Shown: positions 6,673-61,426 of the stretch, one piece after another
Layout of the letters: the number at the start of each line of letters is the position of its first letter
Position numbering within the stretch: the first letter of the stretch is position 1
DNA from: Escherichia coli
Lineage (GTDB): Bacteria > Pseudomonadota > Gammaproteobacteria > Enterobacterales > Enterobacteriaceae
Reading direction: 5' to 3' (one strand)
Assembly: GCF_024502345.1 (NCBI RefSeq)
Contig: NZ_JALDNN010000001.1
DNA: 64,000 nt
The notes under the pieces: model-generated
Told to the model about the DNA's origin: nothing
What the model saw: the letters and a program-made list of their open reading frames with translations, nothing else
Database searches by the model: none
Program-made: the position numbers and the translations under genes

Positions 6673-7722
6673 TTATGCGATGACGCTTTGAATCACATAG
6701 TTAATCGCACCACCACCAACAATCAGCCAGGCAAACAGAACCAGTGCCATCAGCAGAGGTTTCGCCCCGGCTTTTTTCAGCGCGCTGACGTGAGTGGTCA
6801 GACCCAGCGCCGCCATCGCCATTGCCAGCAGGAAGGTATCCAGCGTTACCAGCATGTTCACCACGCTCTGCGGTAACAGGTGGAACGAGTTAAAGATGGC
6901 AACTACGATGAACAAGATGGCAAACCACGGAATAGTGATTTTGCTTTTCTCGCCGCTGTTCGCCCCAGACAGCTGTTTAACACGCGCCGCCAGCAGGATG
7001 AGGAACGGAGCCAGCATCATCACGCGCAGCATTTTGGAAATAACTGCTGCGTTTTCCGCATCCGGGCTGATGGCATGACCTGCCGCCACCACCTGCGCCA
7101 CTTCGTGCACAGTAGAACCAATGTAGATACCGAAAGTTTCCGGACTAAACCATTGAGACATCAGCGGATATATCGCCGGGTAGAGGAAAATCGCGATGGT
7201 CCCGAAGATAACAACGGTTGCAACAGCCACGGTTACTTTACTGGCTTCCGCTTTCACTACCGGCTCAGTCGCCAGTACCGCGGCAGCACCACAGATACTG
7301 CTACCGGCACCGATCAACCAGCTGGTGTGCTTATCCAGACCAAACACTTTCTGCCCCAGGAAGCAAGCCAGCAGGAAGGTACTGGACAGCGTCAACACGT
7401 CAATGATGATCCCACTGATACCGACATCGGCAATTTGCGAGAACGTCAGACGGAAGCCATAAAGAATGATACCCAGACGTAATAAATATTGCTTGGCAAA
7501 CAGCACACCACCGTCACAGCTTTTCCAGATGTGCGGATAGATGGTGTTGCCTAAAACCATCCCCAACAAGATTGCGAGGGTGAGGGCACTAAACCCGGCA
7601 CCCGCAACCGCGGGAATGGAACCACCCCACAGGGCGACCCCGGTGATAACTGCACTCAGGGCTAACCCCGGAATAAAATGCCACAGTGTACGATGTTGTT
7701 TCTGTAAGGTGATATTCGTCAT
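6673..7722 (-). CDS. yeiH: Inner membrane protein of the UPF0324/YeiH family, 349 aa
   Basis: ORF track; multi-TM hydrophobic protein; divergent from LysR-type yeiE. Confidence 0.9.
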
Positions 7723-20743: not shown

Positions 20744-20917
20744 GTAGGCCGGATAAGGCGTTCACGCCGCATCCGGCGACAGGAGCCAAATGCCGGATGC
20801 AACGCTGGCGCGTTTTATCCGGCCTACAATGAGTTCAACATACTGATTTGTATGGTTTTGTAGGCCGGATAAGGCGTTCAAGCCGCATCCGGCGACAGGA
20901 ACTAAATGCCGGATGCG
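20744..20917. repeat. BIME: cluster of about 4 REP units in alternating orientation
   Basis: Repeated GCCGGATAAGGCGTTCACGCCGCATCCGGC and its reverse complement. Confidence 0.85.
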
Positions 20918-33353: not shown

Positions 33354-33477
33354 TTCCTCACGATTCTCCTTTGACGATCGCACTTTTTGCTCGTTATGAT
33401 GGCGTCGCTAGCCTCAGTAAATCCTTACTCCGGCGGTGCGCAACCCGTGCGCGTGAACCACTATCTGAATGCTCATC

Positions 33478-53797: not shown

Positions 53798-53908
53798 ATA
53801 TTCATCCCTGAAATGTATTAATGAAATAAACGATATTTTACGCGCAATAAATGTTTGGCGCATTAGTTGTTTGAGCGAAAAATATCTGGAAAGCAGATCA
53901 CAGTAAAT

Positions 53909-53991
53909 AAAAAAACCTGCTGGTGAGGCAGGTTCTTTTATTTACTATTTTCAGGCCTAACACCACAGCCTGTGCAACATCGTGTTCCAAC
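53909..53991 (-). ncRNA. orzP: Predicted ~80-nt divergent small RNA (OrzO/OrzP-like antitoxin RNA), copy A
   Basis: Minus-strand promoter (-35 TTGCAA 54021-54026, 17-bp spacer, -10 TATAAT 53998-54003); minus-strand intrinsic terminator (stem ACCTGC/GCAGGT then U7) at 53909-53934; 5' region repeats leader sequence at 54138-54157. Confidence 0.5.
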
Positions 53992-54020
53992 GAACGAATT
54001 ATAACCACGGCTGGACCCCG

Positions 54021-54048
54021 TTGCAATTAAGATAATGAGATTTATAAT
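54021..54048 (+). promoter_or_regulatory. Sigma70 promoter of peptide gene copy A (-35 TTGCAA, 16-bp spacer, -10 TATAAT); -35 shared with the divergent sRNA promoter
   Basis: Hexamers read directly; predicted TSS near 54056 gives a ~174-nt leader. Confidence 0.6.
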
Positions 54049-54229
54049 CCTGACTGTTGGGACGTTGCGCCGGATCGAACCTATTTCAAGTCCTGGCTAC
54101 CGGACGGGGGGTGCTGCAGGTAGTGCCCTGATCCGGAGTGCAACATCGTGGTCCAACATACGTAAACCAGTATCGACAGGCAGTGTAAGGGTAAGGTGCT
54201 GGTGTTGCGCTCCTTAATAAGGAGAGCGG

Positions 54230-54319
54230 ATGGACTCGCTGACACAAAAGTTAACCGTGCTCATTGCTGTACTGGAGCTATTAGTGGCTCTGTTACGGTT
54301 GATTGATTTGTTGAAGTAA
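54230..54319 (+). CDS. zorP: 29-aa hydrophobic peptide MDSLTQKLTVLIAVLELLVALLRLIDLLK (type I toxin candidate, ZorO/ZorP-like), copy A
   Basis: ATG with AAGGAG SD 7 nt upstream; single predicted TM helix; sequence as I recall ZorO-family toxins; symbol O versus P uncertain. Confidence 0.7.
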   Translation: MDSLTQKLTVLIAVLELLVALLRLIDLLK

Positions 54320-54341
54320 CGGGCAAATTGAAACGCATCTA

Positions 54342-54366
54342 AGGGGGAAAACCGCTTCCCCCTTTA
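54342..54366 (+). terminator. Terminator of peptide gene copy A
   Basis: AGGGGGA-loop-TCCCCCT followed by TTAATAAAAT. Confidence 0.55.
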
Positions 54367-54518
54367 ATAAAATGATTACTGTTTTTATTAATTCATCATA
54401 TAACTCATTTTTATTTATAAATTCATCGATTTTATATTCAACGCACCATTTGACCGGGATGTGAATATTTATGTTGGGCTATTGGCAAAAAATATCTGGA
54501 AAGTAGATCGCAGAAAAT

Positions 54519-54599
54519 AAAAAAACCTGCTGGTGAGGCAGGTTCTTTTATTTACTACAGTGACGCTAACTTGCTGATTGTGCAACATTTCGTACCAAC
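54519..54599 (-). ncRNA. orzO: Predicted ~80-nt divergent small RNA, copy B
   Basis: Minus-strand -10 TATAAT (54606-54611) and shared -35 TTGCAA (54629-54634); terminator hairpin plus U7 at 54519-54543; 18-nt complementarity (one G-U) to leader at 54749-54766. Confidence 0.5.
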
Positions 54600-54628
54600 G
54601 AATAAATTATATCCATATCCACACTCCA

Positions 54629-54656
54629 TTGCAATTCAGTGAGTGAGATTTATAAT
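54629..54656 (+). promoter_or_regulatory. Sigma70 promoter of peptide gene copy B (-35 TTGCAA, 16 bp, -10 TATAAT)
   Basis: Read directly; same geometry as copy A. Confidence 0.6.
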
Positions 54657-54837
54657 CCTGCCCGTTGGGAGGTTGTGCCGGATCGGACCAATTTTAAGTC
54701 CTGGCTGCCGGACGGGTGGTGCCGCAGGCGGTGCCCTGATCCGGAGAGCAACGTTTCGTACCAACATACGTAAACCAGTATCAACAGGCAGTGTAAGGGT
54801 AAGGTGCTGGTGTTGCGCTCCTTAATAAGGAGAGCGG

Positions 54838-54927
54838 ATGGACACGCTGACACAAAAGTTAACCGTGCTCATTGCCGTACTGGAGTTATTAGTGGCTCTG
54901 TTACGGTTGATTGATTTGTTGAAGTAA
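54838..54927 (+). CDS. zorO: 29-aa hydrophobic peptide MDTLTQKLTVLIAVLELLVALLRLIDLLK (type I toxin candidate), copy B
   Basis: ATG with AAGGAG SD; differs from copy A by S3T only. Confidence 0.7.
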   Translation: MDTLTQKLTVLIAVLELLVALLRLIDLLK

Positions 54928-54949
54928 CGGGCAAATTGAAACGCATCTA

Positions 54950-54974
54950 AGGGGGAATACCGTTTCCCCCTTTA
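54950..54974 (+). terminator. Terminator of peptide gene copy B
   Basis: AGGGGGAA-loop-TTCCCCCT then TTTAAG. Confidence 0.5.
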
Positions 54975-54982
54975 AGAAAGCT

Positions 54983-55036
54983 ATACTCGTCATACTTCAA
55001 GTTGCATGTGCTGCGACTTTAATTATCTAGAGTATA
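54983..55036. repeat. Truncated (short-form) ERIC element: left and right termini without the central part
   Basis: TATACTCGTCATACTTCAAGTTGCATGTGCTGCG + ACTTTAATTATCTAGAGTATA; compare full copy at 23437-23563. Confidence 0.7.
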
Positions 55037-55414: not shown

Positions 55415-57622
55415 TTAATGGAAAATGACGTCAGGTGCGCTTAACGCCTCACTCAAATCAAACACATCAAGTTCGGCAAAAGTGACGGATTTATTGTCAC
55501 GGTACACTCGAAGAGAACGGAAGCTCATTAGCGCTTTGCTATCAACATTGTAGTGGTTAAAACCGGGTGAAAACTTAAGGACCAGCCGGTACTCGCCCAG
55601 GTCATAGACAAATGCATCCTCATAGCCTGACTCCCAGCCTTTGTATCGCATTCCCATAAGCTGCCCAACGGTAGCGGATTTACCTTCCCAGCGAGTCAGG
55701 CTGTTACTGGTTGACTCGTCAGGTGTGAGCAGCACCGTGCACCGCGCCAACTGGCGAAAAGGCGGCATAATTTCGTAATCGGCAAAAAGCTGTGCAAATT
55801 CACTGCGCATTTCTACTGTCATTTCTAACGGGTGGGCAATGCCAATCAGAGCGTCCGCAGGCAGGTCAATTGGCTCATCTTGCGCATTGCAGAACTCCCC
55901 CTCTGCGGCCACACGAAAGGCGTTGAGTAAACAACGCGGTTCATTTGCCGGATAAGCCCCCCATATTAATCGCTGGGTAACCAGACGGGTAAAGGGATGA
56001 TTAACAAACAGAGAATGAAAATCTGCCAGCGACCAGCGTCGGGTGGTACGTAGGGCCGTTTCAAGACGCGGGAGCAGGTTTTTGCTCACCTGAGTGGCAT
56101 CTTTTTTTAGCCCTTTTAGTCGGGCCAGTGCCTCGGGCGCTTTCAGTTGATCGTCATCGGCGCGCAACCGGGGAACGCTTTTCTGGCGAACGTTTTGCTG
56201 ATCAAAGATAACCGGGTTGAGGTTTTCATCGAAGCGAACGGTAAACTGCCGGGGACCAAAATCAAAACTCAACGCCTGCGGATCATCAAGGCCCAGGGTT
56301 GGGACTAATCTGTCCGCTAGCTCTTCCTGGCTTAGCCCGCGATTTTCTGCGACCACCTGAAGAAATTCCGCCGCGTTATCACGTAAGGGGCGGGATTTCG
56401 CCCGTTGCGATATATGATGCAGCTGTATCAGCGCCATATCATTATTCATCAGGGTAAGGATGTTCAGGCCACTGACAGCACGGGCAGATTTGCCTTCTTG
56501 TGGCCAGCCGAGGATCTGTGTCGTTAGATCCCGTGCCGTGCTTTCGTCACCAAAGAGACTTAACGCCAGAAATGCCCAGTTGTCTTTTACGGGGGCACCA
56601 GCTTGTTGCCACGCAGTGAAGAGATCCCAGGCAAAAGCTGCCAGCGTTTGTGGCTGGCAGAACGTTTTCAGTTGTTCCAGCCCGCTATAAAAACGTCCCC
56701 CCTGGGTAAAGCGCAGCATTTCGCCGATAATTTCCAGAGCGTCATCGGTAACAGGTTGATTATTAGTGATAAGGCGCGGCCTGGACCACATTTGCGGATG
56801 CCAGAAATCAGGGGCTTTTGGAATGCGTGCCGGGTAAATCTCTATTGGACTCTGTTTAAGTAATTGTTCCAGGGCAGGCCATAGATCTGTACGCTGCCAA
56901 CGATTGGCTACAGTTTGTAGCAATTCGCCATGCCCATGTTCGTAAAGTAAACGCAGGGCAAGTAATGCAGCTTCGCTTTTATCGCTAGATTTGGTGAAGA
57001 CAAGAGGGATAAGTGCAGTAGCCGTATGTTCCGGCCATTGTAAAATCCACTGGCGAGCCAGATTACGCTGGCCCGCAAAACGCTGCCAGCAGCTTTCCTC
57101 TGCCAGAGAGAGATGCTTACGCAGTCGGAGATCGAATTCGTTATAGGTTTCTGAGCGATAACCATAGCCATAATCCTCGTCCTGATACTGCAATGTCACT
57201 ACCAGAGGATCACTCTCATAACACCGCGCAATAAACTGGCGTGCAATCACCACCTCAGTCGCATATTCCAGCCCCTCTTGTTGGACGATTTCGTCGAGCA
57301 ACTGTTGGCTGTCATTTTGCGCGATACAGGCTAGCGCCGCCATTGTCCGGGGCGGGATTGAGGGTTTGTGTTCGCCGATCAAGTTGATGGCCTGCGTGAT
57401 GGCGGACTGCCACTCCAGTGAAAAATTTTCATAACGCCAGACAATGTTTTTTTTCTTCTCAGCTTTTTGTAGCAATTCATCACCCAGTGTCTGAATGATG
57501 CTTTCAGTGATAACAGGCACTGGTTCGCCCGGCCAATTGCGATGGCTGAGTGGTGTTTTACCATTTTTATATTTCAGTTCCAGTTGGGCGTTATCAGCCA
57601 GCCACGGTAATTCCTTGTCCAT
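55415..57622 (-). CDS. yehI: DUF4132-family protein, 735 aa; shorter paralog of the adjacent 1264-aa gene
   Basis: ORF track; ATG with AAGGAAAG SD 9 nt after the upstream stop; aligns to the longer paralog from about residue 105 and skips its central ~420 residues. Confidence 0.7.
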   Translation of the reverse strand: MDKELPWLADNAQLELKYKNGKTPLSHRNWPGEPVPVITESIIQTLGDELLQKAEKKKNIVWRYENFSLEWQSAITQAINLIGEHKPSIPPRTMAALACIAQNDSQQLLDEIVQQEGLEYATEVVIARQFIARCYESDPLVVTLQYQDEDYGYGYRSETYNEFDLRLRKHLSLAEESCWQRFAGQRNLARQWILQWPEHTATALIPLVFTKSSDKSEAALLALRLLYEHGHGELLQTVANRWQRTDLWPALEQLLKQSPIEIYPARIPKAPDFWHPQMWSRPRLITNNQPVTDDALEIIGEMLRFTQGGRFYSGLEQLKTFCQPQTLAAFAWDLFTAWQQAGAPVKDNWAFLALSLFGDESTARDLTTQILGWPQEGKSARAVSGLNILTLMNNDMALIQLHHISQRAKSRPLRDNAAEFLQVVAENRGLSQEELADRLVPTLGLDDPQALSFDFGPRQFTVRFDENLNPVIFDQQNVRQKSVPRLRADDDQLKAPEALARLKGLKKDATQVSKNLLPRLETALRTTRRWSLADFHSLFVNHPFTRLVTQRLIWGAYPANEPRCLLNAFRVAAEGEFCNAQDEPIDLPADALIGIAHPLEMTVEMRSEFAQLFADYEIMPPFRQLARCTVLLTPDESTSNSLTRWEGKSATVGQLMGMRYKGWESGYEDAFVYDLGEYRLVLKFSPGFNHYNVDSKALMSFRSLRVYRDNKSVTFAELDVFDLSEALSAPDVIFH

Positions 57623-57631
57623 GCTCTTTCC

Positions 57632-60600
57632 TTATTCAAACAGGGCTTCAATATCGTTAATTAGCTCGCTGGCGGTGATGGCATCGAGTACGGAGAGCTG
57701 CGCTTCCTGTGTTGAATTACTCCCCCAGCCATAGCTTTCCGCTTTGCCTTCCCATAGCCACAGCTTGCTTAAGAGCTGCTCAGCGCTAAGTTCGGCTGGT
57801 GACATACCCACTGCAAAGCCTTCATCGATTTCCATGATTAACGACCAGCGGCCCAGAGGTTTGATCATCCAGCCGATCCAGCCTCCATCCTGTGGTTCGC
57901 CCTTTATCCAGCCTTTATTCGCCAGCCCCATTACCCGACCGCTCGGGCATTTTCTGCTTGCCCAGCGGGTCAGTTCGCTGGCATTGCGCTCGGTTTCTGT
58001 CAGGGCGTAACTGTTACGGTCGAGCTGGCGGAACGGCGGTAGCAGTTCGTAGTCGGCAAAAAGCTGCCCAAATGCGGCGGCATCCGTCGGTGATATTTCC
58101 AGAACGTGAGGAATACCAACAGAGATATCGCCTTCCGGCAGGGTGAAAAGATCATCGTCAGCGGTGCTGTAGCTGTTATCTTCCGCTACGCGAAAGCAAG
58201 CCAGTAGCTGGTTTTCGGCGCTATAAACACCCCAAATCAGACGGCGGGTTAAGTGGCGAACCAACGGATGCTCAACCAGGAAGAGCTGGAAGTTTTCCGG
58301 CGACCAGCGGCGGCGCAGGCACATGGCGGATTCCAGCCTTGCTACCTGCTGGGCGGCGACGGTACGCGCATCTTTTTTCAGCAATTTGTAGCGGTTAACC
58401 GCATCGTTCGCCTGTGATTCATCATCGCTTTTATTGGGTTTAGGTAAGTCTTTCAGGCGGCTGCCGGAAACATCACGCACAAACGGTTTTAAGGTTTCAT
58501 CAAAGCTGACGGTGAACTGGCGTGGGCCAAAATCCAGCAGCAACGAACCGTTATCATCCAGACCGAGATCCGGTGCTAACCGATCTTCAAGCTCCGCCAC
58601 TGTCAGTTCGCGACTTTCGGCAATGTCGGCAATTTTCTCTTTCGCCCGCTCCTGTAATGCTTTGAATTTCAGTTTCTGGGCAATGCCGTTAAGCTGCATC
58701 AGGGCGATATCACTACCGATAGCGGCGAGAATATCCAACCCAACGGTGGCGCGTTTATGCTGAGATTCGCCAGGCCAGGCGCGGATTAATGGCGTCAGTT
58801 TGCGGGCGGTGTCATCGTTGCCGAGAACACCTAACGCAATGAACGCCCAGCTTTCTTTCGATGGCGCGCCCGCAGTCAGCCAGGCGGTAAACAGATCCCA
58901 GGCAAATTCAGCCAGTGAGTCGGCGGTACAGGCATCTTTCACCTGCAATAATCCCGGATACAGAGCCTCTTCCTGAGGGAAGCGGAGCATTTCACCGAGG
59001 TGCTGGAGTGCGCTATCGGGCAGTGATTGGGCGTTTGCTTTTAATACCGGGCGCGTCCAGAGCGATGGCTGATAAAAGGCCGGAAGAGTGGGGATTTTTG
59101 TCGGGTGATTATCTAAGGGATCGAGCGCAAGCAGAGCGTTCACCGCGTCTGTTACTTCCGGCTGGTTATAACGCCGGGCGATTTCTTGCAGTAATGGCTG
59201 ATGACCATTTTCGGTAAGCATACGCAAGGCAGCGCGGGCGTTATCCTGTGCTTCACCGGCTTTGCCGAGCGCCGCAGGCAGCAGGCCGGTAAGGGCATGT
59301 TCCGGGTATTTCAGCAGCCAGGTGCGGGCGTCTTGTCGTAGGGTTTTGAGTTTGTTGAAGGCGCGGGCGACGGCAGGAGCTAGCTCACTCGCTGCGAAGT
59401 AATTCGTGATGGGCAAGGCTTCCTGCGGATAGCGTGTAATTGAGTTAACTAAACCAGGTAAACCTTTGAGTCCAAAATGTAACATGGCGTATTCGGTATC
59501 GGTATGTGGAGATAGAGTAAGGGCATTCCATGCTTTTACTGCTTTCTCCAGCGGCAATGTTGTCAAAATCCCCAAATGCCAATAATGCCCGGTAGGTGAA
59601 TGAAACACCTTAAATTCACTTATTAAGGTTGAATAATCTTCATTTAGCCATGCCTCAACTACCGCTTCGGGAGCTTTAATATATGTACCAGCGATCCGTC
59701 GTTGAAAACCCATCCTTGCCAACAGGTTGGTAGTACTTTCTTCATGGCTAACCGTGATGTGTTGTGAATACCAGATATATTTCGCCAAAAGTTGATTACT
59801 GATTTCTTCTGTCATATAACAGATTGGCTCAATGCCTAATGGCGCTAAATCCAGCACCGGAATCGGCGATTTTTTCTTTTTCGAAAGCCATGGTGGGGAG
59901 ACTACTATGGCAGGCAGTAGATCGGCGCAGGCATGGTTTGAGGGCTGTGTCAGTTGTTGCTGGCATGATTTCAGTACGGCAACTGCGGGTGTCGAGAGCC
60001 AGGGAAGGACCTGTTCTGCCAGTGCTGGTTGTGAGATAAGCATTGTCATTAGCATAATGCGCCAACTGTTCTCTTCTTTTTGCCCAAGAAGTTCCGTCAG
60101 TGCCGCCATTGCTGCATGTGGGAACGCAGCAATGGCTTTCGTCATCCGATCGTGACAGCGTTTAGTTTGCCCGGCTACACGTATAAGCAGTGTCAATGCG
60201 ACCGGATGATTGATATGACGCAACACATCGGCGCAGTAGTCACTTGCGGCATAGGGAGCAAATCGGGGCAGGGCTGCAACACCTTGCTCCTGTAATACGG
60301 TGGCTGACCATATCGCACCACAATAGTAATCATCAAAAATGGCATATGGCTCGTGATATTTTTCTAATGAGGCAAGAATGTGCTCATCAGTCGCCACTAT
60401 TTTTAACCACTCAAGCGAGGGTAATTTTTTTTGCCCCAGTAGACGCTGGGCAATTTCATGTGCAATTTCTGGTTTTTCGGGTAATAACAAAGCAATTAAT
60501 GGTTGCCGCCATTCTGGAATATGTGGAATTGCGGCAATAAGTTTTTGTGCACATTTTTGCCAGAGAGACTCTTCCGCCAGTGATAAATGTTTACGTAGGC

Positions 60601-61426
60601 GTAATTCAAATCTGGAATATTGCTCCAAGTAGTTAGGTGCAATGCCAGACGGCAGAATAATAATGACATTATTCGCATAATCCCATTCAATATCAATCTG
60701 TTGAAGGTGTATTATTACATCAGTAGCATATGCCAGACCGCCTTCCTGGACGATCTGATCCATAACATCCTCACGCACTTTATATCTTGTGCATTTCATT
60801 TCAAGTGCCGTGAGTACAGCCATTACTGGTGATGGTAACTGTGTTGTTTTCAGGCCGTCGATCTGACTGATCGCCTGGGCGACGGTGTTTTGCCATTCTA
60901 AAGAACAGGCGCTGAAGTCAAATGTGGCTGTTTTATTATCCCGTTGCGACACACTACAGGCTAAGCGACGTAAGTGGGTCAATTTGTCTGCTTGCTGAAC
61001 AGGAACTTCGGGAAAGCGGCGATGGCTTAACGTGGTGTGTACAACTTCGGGCGGAAAAACGACAGCAATATCTTTCGCCAGCCACGGTAAAACAGCATCT
61101 GTATTTTTGTCAGCCGCACGGGTTTCTGCTACGAAAGAGGGTTGTTCCTGAATAATGGTGGATAAGTCCGCTACCTTGAGAGAGCCCGTTACCGTTTGGG
61201 AAGGTTGCAAAGAATTATCCTTCGCTTGCTCCATATATCCCTTCTTCACCTTCTCCGCAATCAGCTTCAGTTCCGCTTTTGCCGCCGCTGCAGCATCTGC
61301 AAAGCTTTTTACCTGACTTTGCCCGTTAGTGCCGACTTTACCCCAGTTGATATGCAGCTCGTTGTCTTGCTGCTCCACCGCCCAGAATTTATGTGATTTT
61401 TCGTCCTGATAGATATAACTCTTCAT
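57632..61426 (-). CDS. molR: WGR-domain plus DUF4132 protein, 1264 aa, intact reading frame
   Basis: ORF track; N-terminal WGR-like motif (KFWAVEQQDNELHINWGKVGTNGQ); position between metG and yehI. Confidence 0.75.
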   Translation of the reverse strand: MKSYIYQDEKSHKFWAVEQQDNELHINWGKVGTNGQSQVKSFADAAAAAKAELKLIAEKVKKGYMEQAKDNSLQPSQTVTGSLKVADLSTIIQEQPSFVAETRAADKNTDAVLPWLAKDIAVVFPPEVVHTTLSHRRFPEVPVQQADKLTHLRRLACSVSQRDNKTATFDFSACSLEWQNTVAQAISQIDGLKTTQLPSPVMAVLTALEMKCTRYKVREDVMDQIVQEGGLAYATDVIIHLQQIDIEWDYANNVIIILPSGIAPNYLEQYSRFELRLRKHLSLAEESLWQKCAQKLIAAIPHIPEWRQPLIALLLPEKPEIAHEIAQRLLGQKKLPSLEWLKIVATDEHILASLEKYHEPYAIFDDYYCGAIWSATVLQEQGVAALPRFAPYAASDYCADVLRHINHPVALTLLIRVAGQTKRCHDRMTKAIAAFPHAAMAALTELLGQKEENSWRIMLMTMLISQPALAEQVLPWLSTPAVAVLKSCQQQLTQPSNHACADLLPAIVVSPPWLSKKKKSPIPVLDLAPLGIEPICYMTEEISNQLLAKYIWYSQHITVSHEESTTNLLARMGFQRRIAGTYIKAPEAVVEAWLNEDYSTLISEFKVFHSPTGHYWHLGILTTLPLEKAVKAWNALTLSPHTDTEYAMLHFGLKGLPGLVNSITRYPQEALPITNYFAASELAPAVARAFNKLKTLRQDARTWLLKYPEHALTGLLPAALGKAGEAQDNARAALRMLTENGHQPLLQEIARRYNQPEVTDAVNALLALDPLDNHPTKIPTLPAFYQPSLWTRPVLKANAQSLPDSALQHLGEMLRFPQEEALYPGLLQVKDACTADSLAEFAWDLFTAWLTAGAPSKESWAFIALGVLGNDDTARKLTPLIRAWPGESQHKRATVGLDILAAIGSDIALMQLNGIAQKLKFKALQERAKEKIADIAESRELTVAELEDRLAPDLGLDDNGSLLLDFGPRQFTVSFDETLKPFVRDVSGSRLKDLPKPNKSDDESQANDAVNRYKLLKKDARTVAAQQVARLESAMCLRRRWSPENFQLFLVEHPLVRHLTRRLIWGVYSAENQLLACFRVAEDNSYSTADDDLFTLPEGDISVGIPHVLEISPTDAAAFGQLFADYELLPPFRQLDRNSYALTETERNASELTRWASRKCPSGRVMGLANKGWIKGEPQDGGWIGWMIKPLGRWSLIMEIDEGFAVGMSPAELSAEQLLSKLWLWEGKAESYGWGSNSTQEAQLSVLDAITASELINDIEALFE

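Follow-up and report, generated by a model that had tools for sequence, protein, structure and literature searches.

The yehL-yehK spacer of a 64,000-nucleotide stretch of Escherichia coli DNA (the window; spacer at positions 53864-55036, 1.2 kb) contains two direct repeats, unit A beside yehL and unit B beside yehK, which share 86% identity over 300 nt with a period of 608 nt. On the minus strand of each, the Rfam model RF02083 (OrzO-P; gathering score 60) scored above threshold, at 53909-53984 with 99.9 bits and at 54519-54592 with 88.8 bits. Note that the model begins at sRNA position +8, the first 7 nt being outside the match. The Rfam match, a hydrophobic ORF of 29 aa, divergent promoters, complementarity between sRNA and leader and the position between yehL and yehK all place the region in the zor-orz family. 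Unit A combines a toxin with S3 and an sRNA with ACG at +9 to +11, as in zorP-orzP, and unit B combines T3 with GAA, as in zorO-orzO; these definitions, by toxin residue 3 and the sRNA segment V1, are those of PMC3919570 and PMC11264685. We are highly confident that the region carries two type I toxin-antitoxin pairs in tandem, zorP-orzP (unit A) and zorO-orzO (unit B), and that a full-length duplex is open to each sRNA only with the mRNA of its own unit.

In unit A, the orzP sRNA gene (~83 nt) occupies 53909..53991 on the minus strand, with +1 at the G of 53991 and a terminator hairpin at 53914-53934 followed by a U run. The 5' pairing region of OrzP, GUUGGAACACGAUGUUGCAC (53972..53991, minus strand), matches over its 20 nt the orzP-type gene of K-12, which is 100% identical to OrzP of EDL933 (PMC11264685), and its +9 to +11 segment, ACG, is the published V1 of OrzP. 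A palindromic TTGCAA (54021..54026) serves as the -35 element of both divergent promoters, scoring 10/12 on both strands in a promoter scan. The same scan placed the -10 of orzP at 53998-54003 (minus strand) and that of zorP at 54043-54048 (plus strand); a -35 of TTGCAA and a -10 of TATAAT are listed in Table 3 of PMC11264685. The zorP 5' UTR spans 174 nt (54056..54229, plus strand). Its start was assigned by homology to zorO, unit A aligning with unit B, and gives an mRNA beginning GUUGGGA, the same as zorO. The plus strand of this unit further contains the OrzP target site at leader +83 to +102 (54138..54157), an AAGGAG ribosome-binding site (RBS; 54219-54224) and the 29-aa toxin ORF, MDSLTQKLTVLIAVLELLVALLRLIDLLK (54230..54319). 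The peptide is identical in Sakai and differs from ZorO by T3S, the change that defines ZorP (PMC11264685). A terminator-like hairpin follows at 54341-54364.

Unit B has the same layout. The orzO gene (~81 nt) lies at 54519..54599 on the minus strand, with +1 at the G of 54599. Its -10 (54606-54611, minus strand), the zorO -10 (54651-54656, plus strand) and the palindromic TTGCAA common to both promoters as their -35 (54629-54634, both strands) were all found by promoter scan. The 5' pairing region of OrzO is GUUGGUACGAAAUGUUGC (54582..54599, minus strand), with GAA, the published V1 of OrzO, at +9 to +11. On the plus strand, the zorO 5' UTR covers 54664..54837, and its published length of 174 nt fits the window sequence (PMC5397157). 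The AAGGAG RBS (54827-54832, +164 to +169) agrees with the published position. Mapping the published EAP region, +73 to +102 (PMC5397157), onto the window places it at 54736-54765, with the OrzO target site at its 3' end (+85 to +102, 54748..54765). The 29-aa toxin ORF, MDTLTQKLTVLIAVLELLVALLRLIDLLK (54838..54927, plus strand), is identical in Sakai and is followed by a terminator-like hairpin at 54949-54972. Among Zor variants, ZorO is the one that dominates in E. coli (PMC11264685). With the sRNA starts at 53991 and 54599 (minus strand), the numbering reproduces the published V1 positions. ORFs of 60 aa that overlie the leaders (54035-54217 and 54643-54825) were rejected as genes, as each starts upstream of the transcription start mapped or inferred for its unit.

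The locus has the same neighbors in E2865, DEC5E and Sakai, and its match in E2865 is 99.8% identical. Sakai was used as the O157:H7 reference in place of EDL933. Over the 1251-nt locus, identity to Sakai is 99.4%, with 6 substitutions and 1 single-base indel, none of them in a pairing site; all four pairing sites and both 29-aa peptides are identical. The published zorO-orzO and zorP-orzP pairs of EDL933/Sakai (RF02083; Wen, Won and Fozo 2014; Wen, Harp and Fozo 2017) are the same as those of the window in everything compared: location, tandem order, toxins, sRNA seeds, leader sites, promoters, UTR length and RBS position. The differences from Sakai fall outside the sites only; one of them, a T at 54612 just upstream of the orzO -10, is specific to the window. 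In the RefSeq annotation of E2865, Sakai and DEC5E, no feature represents either toxin ORF or either sRNA in the spacer, and NCBIfam has no model for the 29-aa Zor peptides.

Other features of the window were noted in passing. The yehI gene (55415-57622, minus strand) encodes 735 aa, compared with 1210 aa in Sakai and E2865, because ~475 codons have been lost in frame from its interior; the junction of this deletion, near 57075-57089, shows an overlap of 15 nt. Its neighbor, a molR-like ORF at 57632-61426, is intact (1264 aa) and is annotated as a pseudogene in Sakai. Elsewhere on the plus strand, Rfam scored naRNA4, a REP-type element (85.8 bits; 20747-20824), and a Peptidase-S11 leader RNA (72.8 bits; 33393-33473) above their gathering scores.

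The complementarity between sRNA and leader appears in the DNA as a repeat in each unit, one copy at the 5' end of the minus-strand sRNA gene and the other ~166 nt away in the plus-strand toxin leader. An earlier note on this DNA, made from the sequence alone, had described these copies. By direct reading, its coordinates hold for the unit B sRNA-gene copy GCAACATTTCGTACCAAC (54582-54599) and for the unit A copies GTGCAACATCGTGTTCCAAC (53972-53991) and GTGCAACATCGTGGTCCAAC (54138-54157). The unit B leader copy GCAACGTTTCGTACCAAC is present as described but lies at 54748-54765, one base away from the 54749-54766 that had been given. The sRNA carries the first copy as its reverse complement, so that the single difference between copies gives a U·G pair in unit B and an A·G mismatch in unit A. 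In-register pairing bears out both duplexes that the note had proposed, 18 bp with one G-U in unit B and 19/20 with one G-A mismatch in unit A. The units also differ in the central 11 nt, as had been noticed; the comparison offered for this had, however, set the sRNA-gene copy of unit A against the leader copy of unit B. Comparing like with like, the sRNA genes differ at 4/11 positions and the leaders at 6/11. A search of the whole 64-kb window allowing ≤3 mismatches found each motif only at its two expected places, against chance expectations of 0.04 and 0.01, ruling out a chance origin of the repeats.

We compared the pairing of all four sRNA-leader combinations. In register, OrzO and zorO form 18/18 pairs, all continuous, with the one U·G at +13, and OrzP and zorP form 19/20, in runs of 6 + 13 around the A·G at +7. 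The non-cognate combinations reach 15/18 pairs for OrzP-zorO, equal to the figure quoted by Wen 2014 (PMC3919570), and 14/18 for OrzO-zorP, and their longest continuous run is 8-9 bp. Seed duplex energies were -29.6 kcal/mol for OrzO-zorO and -30.8 to -32.3 kcal/mol for OrzP-zorP (20-/22-nt constructs), as against -17.2 kcal/mol for OrzP-zorO and -21.2 to -22.7 kcal/mol for OrzO-zorP. RNAduplex on the full sRNA and full leader returned -50 to -61 kcal/mol for all four combinations, an artefact of ignoring intramolecular structure, and was replaced by the in-register counts, seed-only duplexes and co-folding.

Co-folding of the whole sRNAs with the full-length leader or the leader processed by 28 nt gave binding energies of -16.2 to -22.4 kcal/mol for cognate and -6.6 to -11.7 kcal/mol for cross combinations; such folding predictions ignore kinetics and proteins. 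With the processed leader, the values were -22.4 (OrzP-zorP), -19.7 (OrzO-zorO), -11.7 (OrzO-zorP) and -8.3 kcal/mol (OrzP-zorO). As a null, the first 20 nt of each sRNA were shuffled 60 times. Relative to these shuffled seeds, the cognate combinations had z scores of -7.9 (OrzP-zorP) and -5.9 (OrzO-zorO). OrzP-zorO was near background (z -1.3, with 4/60 shuffles as good), and OrzO-zorP, with a duplex of 5 + 9 bp, was intermediate (z -3.1). Thus, seed-only duplexes and co-folding both favor the cognate partner.

Much of the corresponding experimental work has been published for zorO. Of the two sRNAs, only OrzO rescues cells from zorO, and its first 18 nt are sufficient when grafted onto other sRNAs (PMC3919570). 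Both sRNAs change their specificity when V1 (+9 to +11) is exchanged, and a zorO leader with compensatory changes is again repressed by the matching sRNA mutant (PMC3919570). A single mismatch at +9 abolished repression of zorO by OrzO, and the pairing requirement derived for OrzO-zorO is 15 continuous pairs, or 17 with one mismatch (PMC3919570). Repression of zorO needs RNase III and does not need Hfq (PMC3919570). The full-length zorO leader is poorly translated; removal of 28 nt opens +73 to +102, which acts like a standby site in promoting translation, and OrzO, pairing at the 3' end of this region, can block translation (PMC5397157). For site sequences identical to those in the window, the literature therefore shows that OrzO represses zorO, that OrzP does not, and that V1 decides between them.

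These observations fit a mechanism in which one palindromic -35 hexamer in each unit serves two divergent promoters, one giving the toxin mRNA with its 174-nt leader and the other an sRNA of ~80 nt. Over its first 18-20 nt, this sRNA would pair with leader +83/85 to +102, blocking translation and leading to RNase III-dependent decay. In this scheme the outer parts of the duplex (sRNA +1 to +5 and +12 to +18) are common to both units; sRNA +6 and +9 to +11 in the center differ between units and have changed jointly with the leader. Because these central positions changed together with the leader, each sRNA would form a full-length duplex only with its own mRNA.

The published requirement is satisfied in both units, by 18 continuous pairs in unit B and by 6 + 13 pairs around one mismatch in unit A. 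With only 13 continuous pairs, the OrzP-zorP duplex relies on the rule of at least 17 pairs with one mismatch, which was derived for OrzO-zorO. By this rule, OrzP is predicted to repress zorP through the 6 + 13 bp duplex, and OrzO is predicted not to. Our literature search turned up no published assay of whether zorP is toxic, whether OrzP represses it or whether OrzO acts on it, so that one half of the orthogonality claim is a prediction. Two-way insulation is a probable reading: the predictions favor the cognate partner in both directions, and the experiments cover OrzP on zorO. OrzO keeps a predicted affinity for zorP above background, and insulation may be weaker in that direction. The preference of each sRNA for its own mRNA, as the earlier note had supposed, is supported by the duplex and binding predictions, by the covariation described below and, on the zorO side only, by the published experiments.

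To place the two units among natural variants, related units were gathered from 12 E. coli genome records, 3 other Escherichia genomes and 18 metagenome contigs. They comprise seven distinct combinations of adjacent sRNA and leader: types P, O and Q-like, a fourth, unnamed type in locus L009 that we label R, one variant of O, and two with swapped partners. Across the natural types, sRNA positions +5, +6, +9, +10 and +11 change on both sides of the duplex. When sRNA and leader were treated as a hairpin, 90.7% of cells were paired, compared with 27-40% in slid registers. Under the published rule, an sRNA of any type passes with the leader of that type and fails with all others. A survey in 2024 of 2,439 loci had found the pairing region to be 'quite variable', suggested that this variation may prevent crosstalk in multicopy strains, and described a third type, zorQ/orzQ, as well as strains such as K-12 with orz only (PMC11264685). 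The zorQ-orzQ and further types (PMC11264685) have the same architecture and constant duplex ends as the units in the window, but their center differs and has changed on both sides. The seed centers in those loci are GUUGAGAUGCC (Q-like) or GUUGGGGCGCC (L009), whereas the window has only the P and O types.

Several of the collected loci depart from the standard arrangement. On one contig (L021, minus strand 6909-7606), orzP adjoins a Q-type leader and is followed by an orzQ; on another (L028), orzQ adjoins a P-type leader. Either tandem units have recombined in nature to give these swapped partners, or the contigs are assembly chimeras. In strain 82.0312 (L011, ~588-600), a deletion of 4 nt between the orzP -10 and +1 should shift the sRNA start, and in L024 the Zor ORF is longer by two residues (…LLKQW). 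K-12 BW2952 (L003, 1499-1810) retains an intact orzP-type gene with its promoter and about the first 30 nt of a zor leader but has no toxin gene, which matches the published orphan OrzPmg (PMC11264685). When one genome per species was scanned, the locus turned up in three other species-level genomes of Escherichia and nowhere else; the E. coli representative in that scan had no match to the zor RBS-hairpin pattern.

The persistence of an orzP-type gene with an intact promoter on its own in K-12 raises the question of whether the divergence of OrzP reflects a second job, its seed being shaped by other trans targets and not by insulation. About 30% of E. coli genomes have the orphan gene, and MG1655 expresses it (PMC11264685); we found orzP-type sequence in ~3,396/5,426 complete genomes as compared with ~1,255 for orzO. 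However, no target besides zor is known, and the zorP leader, where present, has changed in step with OrzP, as control of the toxin predicts. As the driver of the divergence, a second job is therefore unlikely; as an additional role of OrzP, it would be compatible with insulation of the two pairs.

A slightly less probable arrangement is insulation in one direction only, a hierarchy in place of orthogonal pairs, in which OrzP cannot act on zorO and OrzO partly represses zorP. OrzO-zorP is indeed the stronger of the cross interactions, by seed duplex, by z score and by ensemble binding energy (-10.9 to -11.7 kcal/mol, compared with -6.6 to -8.3 kcal/mol for OrzP-zorO). This duplex nevertheless has four mismatches within the first 11 nt and a longest run of 9 bp, far below the published 15 continuous pairs or 17 with one mismatch. 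It is also non-Watson-Crick at +9, the position at which a single mismatch abolished the action of OrzO. Finally, the proposal that the repeats are merely a leftover of duplication or a protein-binding site in DNA, with no RNA-RNA pairing, is already refuted. All that speaks for it is that the two copies are direct repeats in the DNA. Against it, mapped or consensus promoters transcribe the copies in opposite directions, the pairing is maintained across types by compensatory changes, and published compensatory mutagenesis and structure probing show an RNA duplex (PMC3919570, PMC5397157).

Returning to pairing with the cognate leader as the preferred reading, every natural cognate duplex seen, in the window and in five of the collected loci (L005, L006, L007, L009 and L019), has one fixed imperfection. 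In the P, Q-like and L009 types it lies at sRNA +7 as a purine-purine mismatch, even though neighboring positions covary; in the O type it is a G·U at sRNA +13. In the window, these correspond to 53985/54151 in unit A (the +7 pair) and 54587/54753 in unit B (the +13 pair). We queried complete E. coli genomes with 'repaired' versions of the four sites, each carrying one single-base change. No full-length exact match to a repaired version was found among the 3,382 and 3,396 genomes with a match for the P leader and P sRNA gene, or among the 1,257 and 1,255 with a match for the O leader and O sRNA gene; diversity within each type is low, and the absence of repaired versions is therefore not proof of selection.

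The leader site may also pair within its own mRNA. Both zor mRNAs begin GUUGGGA.GUUG(C/U), resembling the 5' end of Orz. Single-sequence and alignment folds predict that the two constant flanks of the Orz site are bound by leader +1 to +5 and +9 to +13 (54056-54068 with 54138-54157 in unit A; 54664-54676 with 54748-54765 in unit B), and that the variable center of the site, +93 to +97, stays unpaired. Published probing found +73 to +102 closed in full-length zorO RNA, which fits the predicted helix (PMC5397157). In the leader alignment, no compensatory change was seen in the helix between 5' end and site, the columns being invariant. The helix is thus suggested by thermodynamics and the published probing. 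Such self-pairing may offer a reason why only the center of the duplex diverges. We further suggest, tentatively and as something that is probably not the case, that the imperfection in the duplex is selected: with the site closed in cis by the mRNA and recognized in trans by the antitoxin, the imperfection could tune RNase III cleavage or the strength of repression.

Repeated copies of Ldr/Rdl are kept apart by a few nucleotide differences in the recognition region. The same is true of the Sib/Ibs copies within one genome (PMC3919570), as in zor-orz. The Sib RNAs, however, are fully antisense and cis-encoded and have two recognition domains (PMC3919570), whereas Orz is divergently encoded, with only 18-20 nt of complementarity and one recognition domain. 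In shoB-ohsC, tisB-istR-1 and dinQ-agrB, sRNA and toxin gene are likewise divergently encoded. The toxin leader is long, needs processing and holds a sequestered RBS; the 5' end of the sRNA pairs with this leader far upstream of the RBS, and the proposed action is occlusion of a standby site together with RNase III decay (PMC5397157). The toxin and sRNA sequences of these systems differ from those of zor-orz. OhsC and IstR-1 gave no repression of zorO unless they were given the OrzO seed (PMC3919570).

In conclusion, the two units in the yehL-yehK spacer are zorP-orzP and zorO-orzO in their known arrangement, and the idea of insulated duplicate pairs in the earlier note is already published. 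As a discovery the locus matters little, the system, the site, the specificity nucleotides and the crosstalk idea all being in print (2014, 2017, 2024). In the matching genomes, however, RefSeq annotates no genes between yehL and yehK, and sequence scans will therefore keep rediscovering the two toxin and two sRNA genes that lie there.
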